Source of the DNA: a virus
Reading direction: 5' to 3' (one strand)
Virus record (IMG/VR): IMGVR_UViG_3300048592_000418
Span: 1 to 64,000 of that record
Length of the DNA stretch: 64,000 nt
Positions 1 to 9,648 of the stretch are shown piece by piece. Each line of letters starts with the position of its first letter. Within the stretch, counting starts at the first letter, position 1. Made by a program: the position numbers and the translations under genes. The notes beneath the pieces were generated by a model. That model had not been told where the DNA came from. It worked only from the letters and a program-made list of their open reading frames with translations, and made no database searches.

Positions 1-117
1 GGCAGCGGCGGCACTTACACCGCCGGCCGAATCTACTTCACGGATTCAGTTTACCTCTACGAAAGCGCTGGCGTGCTCTACCTGAATGACGGCAACGGAG
101 ACCGTGCTTTGACGTAG
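1..117 (+). CDS. 3' end of upstream gene, probably a tail protein (partial)
   Basis: Frame open from base 1: GSGGTYTAGRIYFTDSVYLYESAGVLYLNDGNGDRALT, TAG at 115-117; adjacent to tail-fibre genes. Confidence 0.55.
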   Translation, partial: GSGGTYTAGRIYFTDSVYLYESAGVLYLNDGNGDRALT

Positions 118-165
118 CGGTTTCGGGTTGAAGTTCCTGCGCTCCGGAGTCAGAACCGGATCGGA

Positions 166-633
166 ATGTCACAGATCAAGGCAGGACTTGTGTCCGTCAC
201 AAACGGTTCCGCGACTGTCGTCGGGAACGCGGATGCCGATTGGTCTGATGTCGTCGGCGGCGAAATCTTCACGATCCAAGGGTCCGGCGTTTGGTTCGAC
301 GTGCTATCCGCCGCGTTTGTCACGGATCACTGGGAACTGACGCTTGCAACGCCGTATTCCGGCGCAACGGCCGCGGGGCAAGCCTACGCGATCACGACAT
401 CGTTCACGCCAGAACTCAGCATCCCGTATCCTGATCGCGGCGACGTGGAAACCGCTTCGATCATGAAACGGGCGATGCTGACCGTTGACAGCAAGATCAC
501 GACGATTTCGCCGGGTTCGTTTGTCGCGCTGTTCGGCGAAGATTCCCAGTCGGCGACGTTCACGTTCGGGGACAATTTCACAATCGTTGAGGGCGCCAGT
601 CCCTATCCTCACGCAGAAATCACGCTCAACTAA
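166..633 (+). CDS. Tail fibre/spike N-terminal (anchor)-like protein
   Basis: GLVSVTNGSATVVG...ELTLATPYSGATAAGQAYAI resembles N-terminal domains of phage tail fibres; context. Confidence 0.65.
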   Translation: MSQIKAGLVSVTNGSATVVGNADADWSDVVGGEIFTIQGSGVWFDVLSAAFVTDHWELTLATPYSGATAAGQAYAITTSFTPELSIPYPDRGDVETASIMKRAMLTVDSKITTISPGSFVALFGEDSQSATFTFGDNFTIVEGASPYPHAEITLN

Positions 634-641
634 TTCCCGCC

Positions 642-3047
642 ATGGCAACCACTGTCACACTCGTTAAGCTCTCCGCACTGACGCAGATTCAAACCGATCT
701 GACGAACGCCGTTGCCGCGAGCGCTTCGGCCGCAGCCGCGTCGGCAACGCTCGCGTCGGAATGGGCAAGCAAGACTTCCGCGGCCGTCGCTGGCGGCGAG
801 TTCAGTGCGAAGGAATATGCGCAGGGCGCGCAAGCGGCGACGGGCGGAAGCTCGAAGAACTGGGCACAGCAAACCGGCGCGGACGTGACGGGCGCGGCGG
901 CAAACTCCCGCTCGGCGAAAAGCTGGGCACAGGAAGCGATCAAGGGCGCGACGTTGGGCGGCTCGGCGAAGGACTGGGCACAGGACACCGCGAGCACGGT
1001 TGACGGGACGAGCTTCAGCGCGAAGGAATACGCGCAGGGAACGCAGGCGGCAACGGGAGGATCCGCAAAGAATTGGGCACAGCAAACGGCCGCTGATGTT
1101 ACCGGAGCGGCGGCGAATTCCCGCTCTGCAAAATCGTGGGCACAGGACAATCTCGCCGGCGCGACGCTCGGCGGCAGCTCGAAGGACTGGGCACAGAGCG
1201 GCAGTTTGCCGGATGGCGTGAACAAGTCCGCGAAAAGCTATGCGCTGGACGCGGGGACGAGCGCGAGCGCTGCGGCAACTTCGGCCGCGCAGGCTGCGGC
1301 GATTGCGGCCGGGCTGAATTACAAGGGGACCGTCGCCGGCGCATCCGTGGCGGCAACTTCAACGGCCGCGGGCGACTGTTACGCGATCACGGCCGCGGGA
1401 ACCTCGCAATCTGTCACGTGGGCCGAAGGCGATCTGGCGATCTACCGCGGCACGTCCGGAAACTGGGACAGGATCCCGGCCGCTGTCGTCATGGGCGTTC
1501 ATGCGGCGCTTCGGAACAATCTCACACCGCGCGGCGGCGCTTACGTTGACGGGACGGGATCGGCTCGAATCGCGTCAACGCTGACCGGGCAGACGATTGA
1601 CGTTGATCCGTTCTCCGTCGTGTTGGTCATTGACGTTCCGCTTGCAAACCCGGCCATCGGCCGCGGGATGTTCGCGATCTCGGAAAACATTGGGGCGCCT
1701 ACGTCGCCGACGCGCGCCTTCATTTCCGAACTTAGCACGAACGGAGATCTGTGGTTCACGATCATCGGGACCGCATCGAATGGCGATTACAACCGTGCAA
1801 CGATCACAGGATTTCGCGCGCTGTATGCCGGGAAGACAGTCATTCTTTCCGTTGTTCGTCCGGCGGCTGGAAACCTACTCGTTTACGCCAACGCCGTTTC
1901 ACTTACGCCGACATATTCGTCTGGCGGAACTCCGCCGGGCTGGCAGACGCAGCTTTCTAGCACGTATTTTTCCGTCGGATACCAGAACACAACGGAAATA
2001 TGGGATGGCGCAATCCGCTCCGCTTCGCTGTATAATCTTCCGCTGACTGCTGCTGATGTCGCTGAAATCAATGAACTGAACGGCGCCGTGCCGTTCCGGT
2101 TTCAGTTCGGGAACATCAACTTTTATTCAAGCAACTTTACCGCAAATGCGGACGCGTGGACTACCGTCGGGGCAACTGCTTCCGGAAACATTGATTCAGT
2201 AAACGGCGTGGATAATACGCTGCGGGTTCATGCAAGCGGTGAAACAGGGCAGCATGTCGGGAGACGAACCGGCGCATACGCAGCGAAAAAGCGATTCAGG
2301 ATCCGTGGATCAATCTATATTCCAGTAGGACAAACGAACCTGAACAGCGTTTATTTAATGTTCAGCGGAAGTAATAACAGCGCAACGACGTGGATACCAA
2401 ACTCAGGTGCCGTATCGTGGACTCCTAACGCAGCGTGGCAAACAATTGAACTGGATGCGACCTTGGCACCCGGTTTCAACGCTTCTAACTTGTCGTTCTA
2501 TATGAACAACGGCGTCACGTTCACCGGCGCCAACTCGCCGACGGACGACGTTTTTTATTTATACGGAGTGAAAGTCGCGCAGCTTGGAGCCATCGTGCAT
2601 CTTCCGATGGACGACGGATGCGGCCGGCAGTTCATGGACAAATCGTCGAACAAGCTGCATGCGATTGCTTCAGCGTCCGGCATTTCGCACATGGTTGAAC
2701 TGGACGAAGCCGCTTACGTCCAAACCGCATTGACGGCAAATGGCGAACTGCTGGACACGGCCGGCGTTCTTCGCACTGATGCCGTTTTGCTGGACGTGAT
2801 CGTGAAGAACACGACGGCGAATCAGGTTTACGGCTTCGGCATCGGAATGTCTTCCGGCGTGCGGGATCTGACCTATGAAACGGACATCCCGGCGAACTCT
2901 GTCGTTGTGCTTCCGATCAAGCGCGCGGATCTCGCCGGGCTGACCGTTGGGACGGCGCCTTTCGGCCGCGCTTATTACTCTGCTGCATCGTGGAATTCCG
3001 GTTCGCTGAACATCAGCATTCGCTATCGCCGCGAGCGAGATCTCTAA
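642..3047 (+). CDS. Tail fibre / receptor-binding protein: Ala-rich repeats, LamG/ConA-like domain, CBM-like domain
   Basis: AKxWAQ repeats; LamG-like ...LLVYAN...WDGAIRSASLYNLPLTAADVAEI; lower-GC beta-rich distal part. Confidence 0.8.
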   Translation: MATTVTLVKLSALTQIQTDLTNAVAASASAAAASATLASEWASKTSAAVAGGEFSAKEYAQGAQAATGGSSKNWAQQTGADVTGAAANSRSAKSWAQEAIKGATLGGSAKDWAQDTASTVDGTSFSAKEYAQGTQAATGGSAKNWAQQTAADVTGAAANSRSAKSWAQDNLAGATLGGSSKDWAQSGSLPDGVNKSAKSYALDAGTSASAAATSAAQAAAIAAGLNYKGTVAGASVAATSTAAGDCYAITAAGTSQSVTWAEGDLAIYRGTSGNWDRIPAAVVMGVHAALRNNLTPRGGAYVDGTGSARIASTLTGQTIDVDPFSVVLVIDVPLANPAIGRGMFAISENIGAPTSPTRAFISELSTNGDLWFTIIGTASNGDYNRATITGFRALYAGKTVILSVVRPAAGNLLVYANAVSLTPTYSSGGTPPGWQTQLSSTYFSVGYQNTTEIWDGAIRSASLYNLPLTAADVAEINELNGAVPFRFQFGNINFYSSNFTANADAWTTVGATASGNIDSVNGVDNTLRVHASGETGQHVGRRTGAYAAKKRFRIRGSIYIPVGQTNLNSVYLMFSGSNNSATTWIPNSGAVSWTPNAAWQTIELDATLAPGFNASNLSFYMNNGVTFTGANSPTDDVFYLYGVKVAQLGAIVHLPMDDGCGRQFMDKSSNKLHAIASASGISHMVELDEAAYVQTALTANGELLDTAGVLRTDAVLLDVIVKNTTANQVYGFGIGMSSGVRDLTYETDIPANSVVVLPIKRADLAGLTVGTAPFGRAYYSAASWNSGSLNISIRYRRERDL
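801..1226 (+). repeat. Tandem intragenic duplication, 213-bp (71-aa) period
   Basis: ttcagtgcgaaggaatatgcgcaggg at 801 and ttcagcgcgaaggaatacgcgcaggg at 1014; the unit FSAKEYAQG...GATLGGS.KDWAQ occurs twice. Confidence 0.9.
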
Positions 3048-3085
3048 AGTCGTTTCGCATTCATAACCTTCAACCCGCGATCATC

Positions 3086-3367
3086 ATGACAATCGTTCCT
3101 CTCCCGTCTCCCTACAACGAAACGACGCACGTGCGGCTTGTCCGCATCGATCTCGAAGTGTCTCCCGGCGTCGTTCACTACAAGCAAGGGCATTTCACGT
3201 GCGAGCCGGAGGAAGTGCCGGCGATGCCGTATTCCGAAGCCGAGCTTCCGGCCGCGTGGGAAGAGCGCGCCGAGCTGAACACCGCCGAGATCCCGCTGGG
3301 GATCACGACGCTCGAACAAGTCCTGATCGCCATCGTCACCGAACTGCTGGGAAATGGGCGCACATAG
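3086..3367 (+). CDS. Small acidic protein after the fibre (putative fibre chaperone); ends in slippery G GGA AAT
   Basis: ATG 3086, MTIVPLPSP...TELLGNGRT*. Confidence 0.6.
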   Translation: MTIVPLPSPYNETTHVRLVRIDLEVSPGVVHYKQGHFTCEPEEVPAMPYSEAELPAAWEERAELNTAEIPLGITTLEQVLIAIVTELLGNGRT

Positions 3368-4641
3368 GTTATGTCCGCAGCGGGACAACTTACACGTATT
3401 ATATCAACGGCGTTGCGTCAGGAACCGGAACCGACAGTAGCGATTACAGTGCCGCTTCGTCCAAGATCGGCGCCGCAAGTATTTTGACGGAAATTCCGTT
3501 CGCCGGAATAATCGCACAGCCGGTCATGCTTAACCGGGCATTGTCGCCTACTGAAATGCTTTCGCTTTATGAATCGGGATCTCCGGACACTGACGATTTC
3601 CCGACAAATAAAGCGGGCACATCAATTTATACGTCCGATTTTTCTGCGGGCGTAGATTCATGGCAGACCGGGGCCGGTCGCACCGTTGCGGGAAACGTTG
3701 ACGGCATCAATGGTCAAAACGACTGGCTTTCTGCCACGAACGACTCGAACACCGTCGCTAACGCATATCGTCCTATTACATGGGGCGCGAGGCGAGTCCG
3801 CGTCGCATACCGGGTATTCATCCCGGCCGGTTCTCCAATCACGGCTATTCAAACCCGAACCGATACAGCCGCGGGACTCTCGACGCCTGTCGCTGCAAAT
3901 ACACAGTATGACATAAGCTATGAACTCACCGTCGGAACCGGAACGGTGATTCGCGTTGACGCCGATACTAGCTCCGCGGCTGGAACAGTTTTTTATATTC
4001 GTGGAATGACAATCACTCCGATTGGAGCGGTTTTCGCGCCCGATGCGGTGCAACCCGGCGCGGGATCGACTTGGTATGACATGAGCGCCGTCGCGGCGAA
4101 TCTAACAATTCCGGTCGGCGTGAGTTGGCGGATTTTGAACAAAGGACTTCCCGTCGGCGGACTGATGGATTTGCTGAACGGTCAGATCAAGTTCCCGGCA
4201 ACGCAAAACCCGTCCAGCGACGTGAACACGCTGGACGATTACGAAGAAGGCACGTTCACCGTGACGCTGCTTCCCGGAACGAGCGGAAGCATCACACTGG
4301 ATCCGGCGTATGCGACGGCTCGTTACACGAAGATCGGGCGCGTCGTTTCCATCCAAGGCGTTTGCGTCGTTCAGTCGATTTCATCGCCGGTTGGAACGCT
4401 GAAGATCGGAGGACTGCCGTTCGCGTCAGGAAACGCCGTCGGAAATTACGCAGCAATTGCGCTTCAAGCGTTGAGTTTGGAGACAACGGCGACGATGCCG
4501 GGGCAGGGCGCGATCCTTCCGAATTCGTCCGTGATCGATGTTTTCACGAGGTTTGCGGGCGGAGCTGGCGGGATCACGAGCAACGCGGCGGACATTCGCG
4601 CCGGGACGGAGATCCGTTTCTCCGGCACTTACAGCGTCTAA
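3346..4641 (+). CDS. Start-less paralogous tail-fibre C-terminal module (half LamG, CBM-like, LDDYEEGT domain)
   Basis: AGKWAHIGYVRSGTTYTYYING...NRALSPTEMLSLY parallels the 642 gene from AGK onward; NTLDDYEEGTFT...YTKIGRVV is a common fibre-tip motif; first in-frame ATG only at 3526, mid-domain. Confidence 0.75.
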   Translation, partial: AGKWAHIGYVRSGTTYTYYINGVASGTGTDSSDYSAASSKIGAASILTEIPFAGIIAQPVMLNRALSPTEMLSLYESGSPDTDDFPTNKAGTSIYTSDFSAGVDSWQTGAGRTVAGNVDGINGQNDWLSATNDSNTVANAYRPITWGARRVRVAYRVFIPAGSPITAIQTRTDTAAGLSTPVAANTQYDISYELTVGTGTVIRVDADTSSAAGTVFYIRGMTITPIGAVFAPDAVQPGAGSTWYDMSAVAANLTIPVGVSWRILNKGLPVGGLMDLLNGQIKFPATQNPSSDVNTLDDYEEGTFTVTLLPGTSGSITLDPAYATARYTKIGRVVSIQGVCVVQSISSPVGTLKIGGLPFASGNAVGNYAAIALQALSLETTATMPGQGAILPNSSVIDVFTRFAGGAGGITSNAADIRAGTEIRFSGTYSV

Positions 4642-4705
4642 GCTGTTTGACACGCTCCGCCCGTGCGCGCATCACGGGCGGAAAACTCACGAACCGAAAC
4701 CGAAC

Positions 4706-5125
4706 ATGAAATTCAGAAAAATCGAACTGCTGGAACGTCCTGTGATGGACGAAGTGAACGGCAAAGAGATCCAGATCGGGATCTTCAGCTATCGCGCGAT
4801 CCTGCGCGAAATCCTGATGACGGGGCCGGCGCCGGAGCCTGCGCGCGGATTCGCCGGCGGACTGACGACGGACGAGATCGCGCAATCGATCATGACTTAC
4901 GGCCGCGTGAAGGATGCCGTCGCGAAGAACGAAAAATTCGTCCTGCTGGACAAGGAATGTTATGACTACCTGATGCGGCGTCTCGCAACGTTCCGCTGGC
5001 AGAGCGCCAACGAAACGACGCACGAATTTTGCCGTTACATCAAAGCCGTTCCGGAAGAGGAATTCGAGGTAACGCGCAAGCCGGACCCGGTTCCCGCTCC
5101 GGCGCCGACGGCCGCGGCGAATTGA
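4706..5125 (+). CDS. Hypothetical protein
   Basis: ATG after ACGAACCGAAACCGAAC leader; TTGACA at 4647. Confidence 0.7.
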   Translation: MKFRKIELLERPVMDEVNGKEIQIGIFSYRAILREILMTGPAPEPARGFAGGLTTDEIAQSIMTYGRVKDAVAKNEKFVLLDKECYDYLMRRLATFRWQSANETTHEFCRYIKAVPEEEFEVTRKPDPVPAPAPTAAAN

Positions 5126-5165
5126 GTTGCGCACGGAGCGCGGAGCGTGCGACAACATCCGCGCT

Positions 5166-5615
5166 ATGAAGACGATCACCCGATTCGGCTTGTTTGCCGT
5201 GGCGCTGCTTTTTGCGGCCGTCGCGTTCGTTGGCGGTTCCCCCAGCAGGGGGAAGGTTCCCGCGCTCTCGGAACTCGCGTTCGGCATCGCCGACGTGGGC
5301 ATGGTCGCGGATCTGGCGTATGACGTGAACGAGTTCCCGCAGCTCGCGAGCGCGGACGTTTCCCCGGCGAACACCGCCGCGGCGTCCGTGCAAGCCGCGA
5401 CGCTCGGCGATCAGTTACTCGTGACGAACCTCGCCGGCGCGGAGCATTACGCGCGAGAACCCCAGCGAATGACACTCGCGGCCGTCTGGCGAAATTCGAC
5501 GCACATCAAACAGCCGCCGGCGATCAGCGTGTTCGCGATCCCTGAACCGGGCGGACGAGCGTCCGACGTGCTCGCGCAGCTCACGAGTTGCAATCCCGAC
5601 TTCAGGCGAACGTAA
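5166..5615 (+). CDS. Secreted/membrane protein with signal peptide, moron-like
   Basis: MKTITRFGLFAVALLFAAVAFVGG; followed by a terminator. Confidence 0.65.
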   Translation: MKTITRFGLFAVALLFAAVAFVGGSPSRGKVPALSELAFGIADVGMVADLAYDVNEFPQLASADVSPANTAAASVQAATLGDQLLVTNLAGAEHYAREPQRMTLAAVWRNSTHIKQPPAISVFAIPEPGGRASDVLAQLTSCNPDFRRT

Positions 5616-8778: not shown

Positions 8779-9648
8779 ATGGATACACCGACAACGGCGG
8801 CGGAAACTACGGGAGCCAAAAGAGGTTCCCTTGCGACGAAACTCGCGATGGTTCTGACGAAGATCAATCGCGTCCCGAAGAACGGCGAAAACAAGTTTCA
8901 CAATTACAAGTTCGTCACCGAATCGGATCTGTCCGATGCAGTGCGGGCCCACCTTGGCGAAGTTGGCGTGTTCATCTTCACCGATCAGGCGGAAGTGACG
9001 CGCACCGAATGGAAAAAGACGAGCCGTGGGGAAGAGCAATGGATGACGCGCGTGAAGCTCACGCACACGTTCGTTGACGGCGACACGGGCGAGACGTTCA
9101 GTGTCACGAGTTACGGCGAGGGAATCGACGGTGGGGACAAAGGACTTTACAAATCGATCACCGGCGCGACGAAATACTTCCTTTACAAGAATTTTCTGAT
9201 CTCCACTGGCGACGATCCGGAGCGCGAAAACGACAACGAACGCCGGCAGGATCGCGAGGAAGCAGGCAGCGACGGACGCTACGCGCGCCGCGAGCGCGTT
9301 AATCCCGACGGCGACGGCGGACGCTCCCGCCAGCAGCAGAGCACGGGCGCCGCGGCCGGAACGGCGCAGCAGGAAAAGAAGGCGCCGGAAGTCCCGCGGG
9401 ATCCGGAAGTGAAGCTGGGGGACATGCTCCCGAATGGCGAGAAATGGGAAAACGTCGTCATTCACTTCGGGAAGAAATACAAGTCGAAGAAGCTCGGCGA
9501 ACTGACGCCGGAGCAGATCAACGCATGGGCGGACGAGTGGAATCCGTTCGCTGACGCCGAGGGAAACCGGCGCGAGGCGTCAGACGAAGACAAACACCTT
9601 CGGATCGCGCTGAACGCTTACAAGCGCGAGCGCGACGCGAAGCAGTAA
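8779..9648 (+). CDS. erf: ERF-family single-strand annealing protein
   Basis: VPKNGENKFHNYKFVTESD...YGEGIDGGDKGLYKSITGATKYFLYKNFLISTGDDPE. Confidence 0.9.
   Translation: MDTPTTAAETTGAKRGSLATKLAMVLTKINRVPKNGENKFHNYKFVTESDLSDAVRAHLGEVGVFIFTDQAEVTRTEWKKTSRGEEQWMTRVKLTHTFVDGDTGETFSVTSYGEGIDGGDKGLYKSITGATKYFLYKNFLISTGDDPERENDNERRQDREEAGSDGRYARRERVNPDGDGGRSRQQQSTGAAAGTAQQEKKAPEVPRDPEVKLGDMLPNGEKWENVVIHFGKKYKSKKLGELTPEQINAWADEWNPFADAEGNRREASDEDKHLRIALNAYKRERDAKQ

Follow-up and report, generated by a model that had tools for sequence, protein, structure and literature searches.

Genes and features of the fibre locus

The window analysed here comprises 64,000 nucleotides of the 102-kb genome of an uncultured phage, a metagenome-assembled IMG/VR contig whose ends are closed by a 127-bp terminal repeat. 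The junction at position 3346, with which much of this analysis is concerned, is taken from this assembly. Close relatives were found neither in IMG/VR, nor in GTDB, nor in one metagenome scan. The relevant features are collected in Table 1.

Table 1. Features of the tail-fibre locus and of related positions in the window
Feature	Position	Strand	Remarks
Tail-fibre gene P0001 (gene 642)	642..3047	+	801 aa, expressed fibre
GCCGGGAAG	1827..1835	+	A396-G397-K398 of P0001; conserved LamG strand motif
Small gene P0002	3086..3367	+	93 aa; ~91-aa family following this fibre type
Putative illegitimate junction	3346..3349	+	small-gene 3' end joined to mid-LamG; placed at the protein level
Start-less orphan fibre 3' part P0003	3346..4641	+	431 aa, native stop kept
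Heptamer G GGA AAT	3349..3355	+	in the small-gene frame; a -1 slip would enter the orphan frame
Sigma-70-like TTGACG-17-AATAAT	3484..3512	+	in-frame ATG at 3526-3528 follows
GC-rich hairpin, 9 bp	4657..4681	+	16 nt past the orphan stop, no T-run; read from sequence
Downstream gene P0055	4706..5125	+	139 aa, no family
ERF-family single-strand annealing protein	8779..9648	+	PF04404, E 5.6e-14

The fibre P0001 starts with a shaft of SAKxWA repeats. A LamG-like domain follows (about nt 1530-2085); the middle is hypervariable, and the C-terminal domain (nt 2577-3044), with RYRRERDL at its end, is conserved. P0001 itself gave no Pfam LamG match, and the domain was assigned via its relative P0018 (PF13385, E 8.5e-10). 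Residues 290-801 are co-linear in more than 12 proteins with 41-54% identity, and in the comparison with the nearest relative identity breaks at residue ~297.

The small protein P0002 is 91-94% identical to P0041, P0052 and P0053, and belongs to a previously undescribed family of about 91 aa, which follows one fibre type. On a related contig (L091), a P0002 homologue begins 31 nt past the stop codon of a fibre gene of the same type. Family members apparently also accompany the fibres P0016 and P0028, as judged from contigs of matching size. The predicted fold of the family consists of four strands and a C-terminal helix (pLDDT 90.7). For P0002, neither Pfam nor PHROG matches were obtained, and structure matches were weak (best Foldseek E at least 0.39, VIA Z at most 4.0). 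The one argument for an assembly or chaperone role of the Tfa, Mu U, P2 G or T4 gp38 kind is the position of the gene behind the fibre gene; comparison of the family with the Tfa/U/G assembly proteins gave no match in sequence or fold.

The truncated fibre frame and its junction

Downstream of the fibre gene, the orphan frame runs for 431 codons without a stop, in agreement with the original prediction of about 430. As also predicted, it begins in the middle of a LamG domain and is startless. The Pfam profile Laminin_G_3 (PF13385) matches residues 2-70 with positions 79-149 of its 151 (E 1.1e-7), so that the first half of the domain, which has about 150 positions in full, is missing. This half is present in longer proteins of the same type (P0004, P0005 and P0009, 775-1222 aa), which are fibre-like, co-linear with the orphan and reach about 80 aligned residues further upstream; for P0004, the profile match covers the whole domain (positions 3-150). 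The orphan retains the C-terminal half of LamG (3349-3555), a middle domain (about 3622-4089) that is homologous to the middle of gene 642, and, at its end, a fibre-tip domain of wide occurrence (4186-4638), which is followed by the native stop. In the tip, 29 of the 32 strongly conserved residues are kept. The orphan also matches phrog_17970 (E 8e-12), 526 IMG/VR loci and, in tblastn searches, Vibrio phage genes annotated as "tail protein". C-terminal homology identifies it as a former tail-fibre or receptor-binding protein. It does not qualify as a working fibre protein, having neither a start of its own nor the N-terminal part for virion attachment.

The reading frame is open already from 3067 on, and its upstream stretch is an off-frame reading of the small gene. 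A start codon is not present at or near 3346. In-frame starts are limited to GTG 3199 and 3256, which fall within the small gene in a frame other than its own, TTG 3484 and 3541, and ATG 3526 and 3556.

The orphan is joined to the small gene, at the latter's 3' end. P0002 agrees with its family up to L87 (CTG 3344-3346) and departs from it exactly where the LamG fragment starts. Its C-terminus reads TELLGNGRT before the stop, instead of the native TELQAHA, and the conserved LamG G-K of the orphan begins at GGG 3349. Protein alignments thus appear to place the junction to within about four bases. The codon GCT 3346-3348, which encodes the alanine of the orphan's "AGK", straddles the junction. 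Since native small-gene sequence reaches at least to CTG 3344-3346, this alanine is probably not fibre-derived at all.

A second and independent join of this kind exists. In P0046, an unrelated metagenome protein, the N-terminus of a small-gene protein (residues 1-65) is joined in frame to a LamG domain, again in its middle. The joined part is identical to residues 78-494 of P0054 (417 of 417), in which LamG is complete. Joins between the small gene and LamG therefore do arise and are caught young. Such events recur, and both states can be caught in nature.

The orphan could be an assembly chimera, in which strain variants (one with fibre A and the small gene, one with fibre B) were concatenated at a hypervariable locus, so that the tandem exists in no virion. 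The record is metagenome-assembled, fibre loci are typically microdiverse, and the sole other join of this type (P0046 versus P0054, 100% identical) likewise comes from metagenome assemblies. However, a repeat that might mislead an assembler is not visible at the junction, as the longest exact word common to the two fibre frames has 11 nt and lies elsewhere and out of register (2516/4251). Moreover, the contig closes with its terminal repeat, and composition shifts gradually over the fibre region, without a sharp step at 3346. We regard a chimera as unlikely.

The AGK motif and exchange of fibre tips

According to the original prediction, the orphan is either the trace of a recent module replacement or a silent tip for a recombinase-free host-range switch, brought in by deletion at an AGK microhomology with gene 642, possibly with help from the phage ERF annealase. 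Much of the underlying description is accurate. The orphan parallels gene 642 from a homologous point (in an 11-protein alignment, its first residue is aligned with residue 396 of P0001), the 9-mers at 1827 and 3346 are both on codon boundaries, and the ERF gene exists. The microhomology as such carries no signal, though: the two 9-mers agree at 7 of 9 positions, of which at most 5 nt are consecutive, and this is the chance level (of 342,771 pairs of codon-boundary 9-mers taken from the two frames, 1306 agree at 7 or more positions). G-K is a conserved LamG motif, and the G in question, G397 of P0001, is invariant in the alignments, including the one of 11 proteins. Segment identities between P0001 and its relatives show no discontinuity at residue 396, and 1827-1835 is, as far as alignments can tell, a LamG motif and no breakpoint. 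Deletion of the intervening 1519 bp would indeed restore the frame; this is automatic for any two homologous codon boundaries.

DNA homology between the orphan and gene 642 is lacking: when they are compared in register, protein identity is 20% and DNA identity 36% (the latter also for the two LamG halves), and MAFFT leaves the points 1827 and 3346 unaligned. The ERF annealase would thus lack usable homology between them; proteins of this type have been shown to act on substrates that are 78-100% identical (PMC3945230). Because the actual junction partner of 3346 is the small-gene 3' end and not 1827, an ERF-helped switch at AGK is left without support, as it is by the chance-level 9-mer, the low DNA identity and the missing breakpoint at residue 396. 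We consider it highly improbable that the orphan is a stand-by cassette, swapped in at useful frequency by deletion from 1827 to 3346. The common strand, the homologous domain positions, the in-frame product and the presence of an ERF gene would all suit a cassette, and so would the occurrence, in another lineage, of intact-LamG and truncated forms of one tip that are 100% identical. Yet nothing steers recombination to 1827/3346 in view of the 1306 equally good pairs, the deletion would be one-way, and the resulting LamG domain would be a chimera of halves from two lineages whose identity is 20% and whose lengths are unequal.

Orphan C-terminal cassettes reportedly lie downstream of rhs and cdiA genes. 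Like these, the orphan is a start-less 3' fragment of a long and polymorphic gene, placed just downstream of the complete gene on the same strand, begins in a conserved domain, and could exchange the tip by deletion between homologous stretches. In Rhs and CdiA orphans, exchange is driven by a stub whose DNA is highly identical to that of the main gene. Here, in contrast, a high-identity stretch was not kept (36% in register, unaligned by MAFFT), and there is no immunity-like partner.

Invertible tail-fibre segments are found in Mu (G/Gin), P1 (C/Cin) and e14 (P/Pin). The phage locus resembles them in that a silent alternative tip without its own start adjoins the expressed tip, but the tips here are direct, both on the plus strand, and not inverted. 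In the 102-kb genome, we found no match to the serine invertase family PF00239 (controls match in 12 of 14 genomes), and the search for inverted crossover sites returned only short inverted repeats with 71-93% complementarity and no sensible placement. Resolvase, tyrosine recombinase, integrase and reverse transcriptase genes were not found in the 102-kb genome either. As to a diversity-generating retroelement, PF00078 had no match in the genome, and long direct repeats of the tip are absent.

Possible expression and probable origin of the orphan frame

The orphan is probably co-transcribed with its neighbours, as late genes flank it on the same strand and no terminator is called in between; the hairpin past its stop was not called by the terminator scan. 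Translation could begin at an internal start (ATG 3526, TTG 3484 or ATG 3556) and give a free protein of about 360-385 aa, with middle and tip but no virion attachment. Both of these domains are complete, and the sigma-70-like site ends 14 nt before ATG 3526. On the other hand, promoter-like sites are not enriched (1 in 6 kb versus 1.6 expected from shuffles; not significant), none of the candidates is preceded by an SD-like sequence (other genes here also have none), the ORFs that start at ATG 3526 and 3556 do not appear among the called genes on record, and an anchorless fibre tip has no obvious role. An internally started product is very unlikely.

Alternatively, the orphan might be expressed as a fusion. 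Lambda has a programmed -1 frameshift of the G/GT type in its tail genes, at G GGA AAG. The present locus is similar: a heptamer built on GGGAAA stands close to the end of a small ORF in the tail region, with a longer frame downstream. G GGA AAT is of the X XXY YYZ type in zero frame, it lies exactly at the junction, and the -1 frame is open to 4641. Slippage would join residues 1-90 of the small protein to the orphan in a minor product of about 518 aa, with the small fibre-linked protein as the anchor of a second receptor-binding tip. The undecayed state of the orphan and P0046, an independent in-frame join of the same two partners, would both agree with such a fusion.

Several observations argue against it. 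Unlike in lambda, the last base of the heptamer is T and not G, the A-site tRNA is Asn instead of the slippery Lys, and what lies in the downstream frame is a domain cut short, not a conserved extension. The small-gene family normally ends three codons later: in all eight stand-alone members that we read, the protein stops 3 residues past the equivalent point, without extension. The heptamer derives from the conserved G-K codons, and its presence is therefore largely a by-product. There is no stimulatory structure past it (z -0.35) and no SD-like element upstream. In E. coli, efficient slippage needs the tRNA in the A site to form cognate pairs again, G_GGA_AAC has low efficiency, and even the best heptamers without a stimulator reach only about 0.3% (PMC4066793); low efficiency may carry over to AAU by analogy. 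Finally, the product would hold half a LamG sandwich, and the AF2 model of P0046 is poor (mean pLDDT 46.9), with values of 26-47 for the small-protein part versus 90.7 for the free protein. Expression by frameshifting is thus improbable. If true, this would mean that a phage has a novel means of carrying two tips, but the evidence does not favour it. We also see little probability in a broader version, according to which the ~91-aa protein is a fibre-bound adaptor and its joining to tips is recurrent and selected for display of a second tip, with P0046 as the in-frame case and G GGA AAT of the present phage as a site of low-level -1 slippage. The orphan would then be a minor expressed extension of host range and no fossil.

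In our view, the frame 3346-4641 is probably a recent vestige, which arose either through loss of the 5' part of a second fibre gene, fibre B, or through illegitimate joining in the course of a tip exchange. The prediction of a recent module replacement was broadly borne out to this extent, although simple deletion in a two-fibre tandem fits the orphan as well as replacement does. The vestige would consist of the undecayed 3' two-thirds of a fibre gene whose start, virion-attachment part and first LamG half are gone, and a single illegitimate join at 3346-3349 would have attached it out of frame to the small gene's final codons. In one history, the ancestral arrangement would have been a tandem of fibre A, small gene and fibre B, from which a deletion of a few hundred bases would have taken the 5' part of fibre B. 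In the other, a block of fibre-A tip and small gene would have been imported from a relative by homologous exchange in the conserved shaft, with an illegitimate right-hand join that pushed the old tip downstream. The two histories fit about equally well. The native stop, the 29 of 32 tip residues kept and the absence of stop codons suggest that the event is recent, although a functional gene would equally show 431 stop-free codons and no loss of conserved residues, and both known junctions could permit expression of a fusion (P0046 in frame, the present one via the -1 heptamer). Probably not expressed, and with no dedicated means of being translated or swapped back in, the orphan should decay, and its sole foreseeable use would be to supply sequence for fortuitous recombination with phages that infect the same cell.

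We counted one further observation for a vestige. P0002 and P0055, on either side of the orphan, both have cluster-mates of at least 90% identity on a contig of one size, 78,833 bp. This is the size of the Logan contig with P0056, which is in the 90% cluster of P0055, and likewise of the contig reported for the fibre P0016 and the small protein P0052.

Shuffling of fibre genes is ordinary in phages, and the orphan is most likely its leftover and no ready host-range switch. As a fossil, it provides a clean, datable example of how a receptor-binding gene is rebuilt, with the displaced part undecayed. It is also a warning for annotation, because an open frame of 431-480 codons behind a fibre gene is not necessarily a gene. 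The mosaic fibre genes of P2 (H/G), Mu (S/U), P1 and lambda (stf/tfa) swap C-terminal tips together with a downstream accessory gene. The present locus shares with them the conserved N-terminal shaft, the exchangeable receptor-binding C-terminus, the small gene right behind the tip, breakpoints inside the fibre gene and the persistence of leftovers of older arrangements. It differs in its small-gene family, for which no match to Tfa, U or G was obtained, and in the leftover, which at 431 codons is unusually large and undecayed.

A tail-fibre fragment that begins within a LamG domain

The orphan frame at 3346-4641 runs open for 431 codons up to its own stop. It begins in the middle of a LamG domain, since its residues 2-70 match the Laminin_G_3 profile (151 positions) from 79 to 149 (Pfam, E 1.1e-7). 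In an alignment of 11 proteins its residue 1 pairs with residue 396 of P0001, the expressed tail fibre encoded upstream, and the glycine of the 'AGK' motif is invariant. The only in-frame starts are GTG codons at 3199 and 3256, which fall inside an off-frame read of the preceding gene, followed by TTG and ATG codons from 3484 onward. The C-terminal 150 residues belong to a fibre-tip domain common among phages (phrog_17970, E 8e-12; 526 IMG/VR loci), and 29 of the 32 tip positions with 80% or more conservation among 28 homologues are retained. By these checks of frame, domain, start and tip conservation, the original prediction described the locus accurately, and the fragment is undecayed. Most likely it is what remains of a tail-fibre gene that recently lost its start, a normal outcome of fibre-gene mosaicism.

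Table. Features around the orphan frame
Feature	Position	Strand	Description
Tail fibre gene (P0001)	642-3047	+	801 aa; SAKxWA-type shaft repeats, LamG-like domain, hypervariable middle, conserved 156-aa C-terminal domain
C-terminal domain of P0001	2577-3044	+	residues 646-801, 156 residues
Small gene (P0002)	3086-3367	+	93 aa; overlaps the first seven codons of the orphan in another frame
Heptamer G GGA AAT	3349-3355	+	in the frame of the small gene; -1 slip enters the orphan frame
Hairpin	4657-4681	+	9-bp GC-rich stem CCGCCCGTG / CACGGGCGG, 7-nt loop
P0055	4706-5125	+	gene after the orphan

Relatives of the orphan, in a search limited to longer proteins, were P0004 (1222 aa), P0005 (775 aa) and P0009 (810 aa). 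They are 31-36% identical to it over about 95% of its first 280 residues and reach about 80 aligned residues further upstream; in P0004 the Laminin_G_3 match spans the whole domain. An exact look-up of candidate orphan ORF calls (ATG-start versions) returned no record. An intact, near-identical copy of the displaced fibre may exist elsewhere, among orphan-related proteins of 240-750 aa. Translation of the orphan from an internal start, for which a promoter-like site at 3484-3512 upstream of ATG 3526 could be cited, is very improbable, as one such site per 6 kb is below chance expectation.

From 166 to beyond 9600 every gene is on the + strand, and gene starts within 1-5200 are not preceded by obvious Shine-Dalgarno sequences. 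The window covers bases 1-64000 of an IMG/VR virus record, which as a whole has 102,004 bp and is closed by a 127-bp direct terminal repeat. Close relatives were not found by blastn against phage records, nor were any relatives found among GTDB genomes, and IMG/VR scans with the orphan, its N-terminal part, the fibre family, the small-gene family, P0046 (a natural fusion of small protein and LamG) and the downstream gene gave just distant matches to the tip domain or to shaft repeats. One metagenome scan yielded a single locus, L091, on a contig that stops 58 codons into the small gene.

The junction with the small gene

The small gene belongs to a family of about 91 aa that is previously unnamed, with P0041, P0042-45, P0047, P0049, P0052 and P0053 as members according to an exhaustive HMMER search. 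P0041 is 94% identical to P0002, and the conserved C-terminus of the family reads ...ELQAHA*. The confidently predicted fold (pLDDT 90.7) comprises four strands plus a helix near the C-terminus (76-89); neither sequence nor fold searches gave a convincing match in Pfam, PHROG, PDB or BFVD. P0002 tracks this family through L87 (CTG 3344-3346) and then ends in LGNGRT*, which is the LamG fragment read in the wrong frame. As the family match ends at L87 and the conserved G-K of LamG starts at 3349, the true junction would lie within 3346-3349 and join the 3' end of the small gene to mid-LamG. On the same reading of the protein alignments, the 'A' codon of the orphan was probably created by the junction itself.

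Joins of this kind seem to recur, and to be visible in both states. In P0046 (482 aa, from a 20,875-bp ENA contig) the first 65 residues of a small-gene homologue are fused, with the frame kept, to residues 78-494 of P0054, a 494-aa protein with complete LamG from an 11,240-bp ENA contig; the common part is identical in 417 of 417 residues. The join is at position ~65 of the small protein (87 in the window) and at LamG position ~363 in P0001 numbering (396 in the window), and these differences indicate a separate event. Either the pair represents a structural polymorphism of which both states were caught, or assembly has produced an artefact. P0046 was the sole fused small-protein form in the exhaustive HMMER search, and a word-indexed search for such forms found none. 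It leaves room for the idea that a fusion of small protein and LamG has a use. AF2 was run on P0046 to ask if the truncated LamG is made whole by the small-protein part; the model was poor (mean pLDDT 46.9, with 26-47 in the small-protein part) and provides neither proof of a folded fusion nor support for one.

In the window, such a fusion could arise by a -1 frameshift at G GGA AAT, a heptamer positioned to lead into the orphan frame. This is quite unlikely, as the G-K codons largely account for the heptamer, no structure lies downstream of it (z -0.35), and the similar G_GGA_AAC has low efficiency in E. coli, where efficient slip motifs require cognate A-site re-pairing and even the best heptamers reach about 0.3% without a stimulator (PMC4066793). 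The recurrent join and the junction heptamer merit a look in reads and proteomes. Assembly could also have produced the tandem in the window as a chimera, given that its source is a metagenome contig; we regard this as unlikely, because the join shows no visible repeat common to its two sides.

Shared DNA and the proposed tip exchange

It had been proposed that a deletion between the LamG points 1827 and 3346, guided by 'AGK' microhomology and possibly aided by the ERF annealase, could exchange the fibre tips. The 9-mers at these points are identical in 7 of 9 positions, with an exact core of 5 nt. Between the two frames, 1306 codon-boundary pairs of 9-mers are at least equally good, and the longest exact word in common, of 11 nt, is located away from 1827/3346, so that the match does not stand out as a recombination signal. 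MAFFT left the two points unaligned. In register, the orphan and the gene at 642 have 20% protein identity and 36% DNA identity, and BLASTP connects only the middle domains of the orphan and P0001 (26% over 182 aa, E 2e-4). G-K is no more than a conserved LamG strand motif, and the in-frame product of the deletion follows from the choice of two homologous codon boundaries. The phage does carry a genuine ERF gene, but ERF-type recombination has been demonstrated for substrates with 78-100% DNA identity (PMC3945230), far from the 36% found here. The microhomology switch as proposed is thus not supported, and we consider it highly improbable.

An invertase switch, a shufflon-type recombinase and a diversity-generating retroelement (DGR) were rejected as well, as the required enzymes are not encoded and useful inverted repeats are absent around the fibre region. 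The 102,004-bp record encodes no resolvase, tyrosine recombinase, serine recombinase or reverse transcriptase; given that the genome looks complete, the phage may be virulent or non-integrating.

Flanking genes and history of the locus

In L091 (contig JACCDR012529259.1), the homologue of P0002 begins 31 nt past the stop of P0017, a fibre related to P0001. P0052 and the fibre P0016 both come from 78,833-bp contigs, and P0042 and the fibre P0028 both from 43,767-bp contigs; the equal contig sizes suggest that each small protein accompanies the respective fibre. The small gene is therefore directly 3' of a P0001-type fibre in L091, and presumably also next to P0016 and P0028. P0056, a cluster-mate of P0055 with at least 90% identity, is likewise on a 78,833-bp contig, so that, taken together with P0052, the genes on either side of the orphan seem to be at home in a single phage lineage. 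The fragment has kept its own stop, the hairpin follows 16 nt 3' of it, with no T-run on either strand, and the spacing to P0055 is normal.

Two histories fit the evidence about equally well. Two fibre genes may have stood in tandem, and a deletion of a few hundred bases would then have removed the 5' portion of the second. Alternatively, a block with the tip of the expressed fibre and the small gene may have entered, through a left crossover that would have been homologous and a right one that would have been illegitimate.

Residues 290-801 of P0001 are co-linear with more than 12 proteins at 41-54% identity. Compared to P0016, the nearest relative, identity of 80-86% gives way to 31% where LamG starts, at residue ~297, and residue 396 was rejected as a breakpoint for this reason. 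Among relatives, the C-terminal 156 residues are 64-80% identical and invariably end in RYRRERDL, whereas the preceding ~350 residues are merely 18-53% identical. Lying distal to a variable domain, this conserved one may serve in assembly or trimerisation and be linked to the small gene that follows. In the shaft of the fibre, SAKxWA units are encoded by a 183-nt direct repeat (78% identical copies, 801-983 and 1014-1196), and the number of units varies among relatives.
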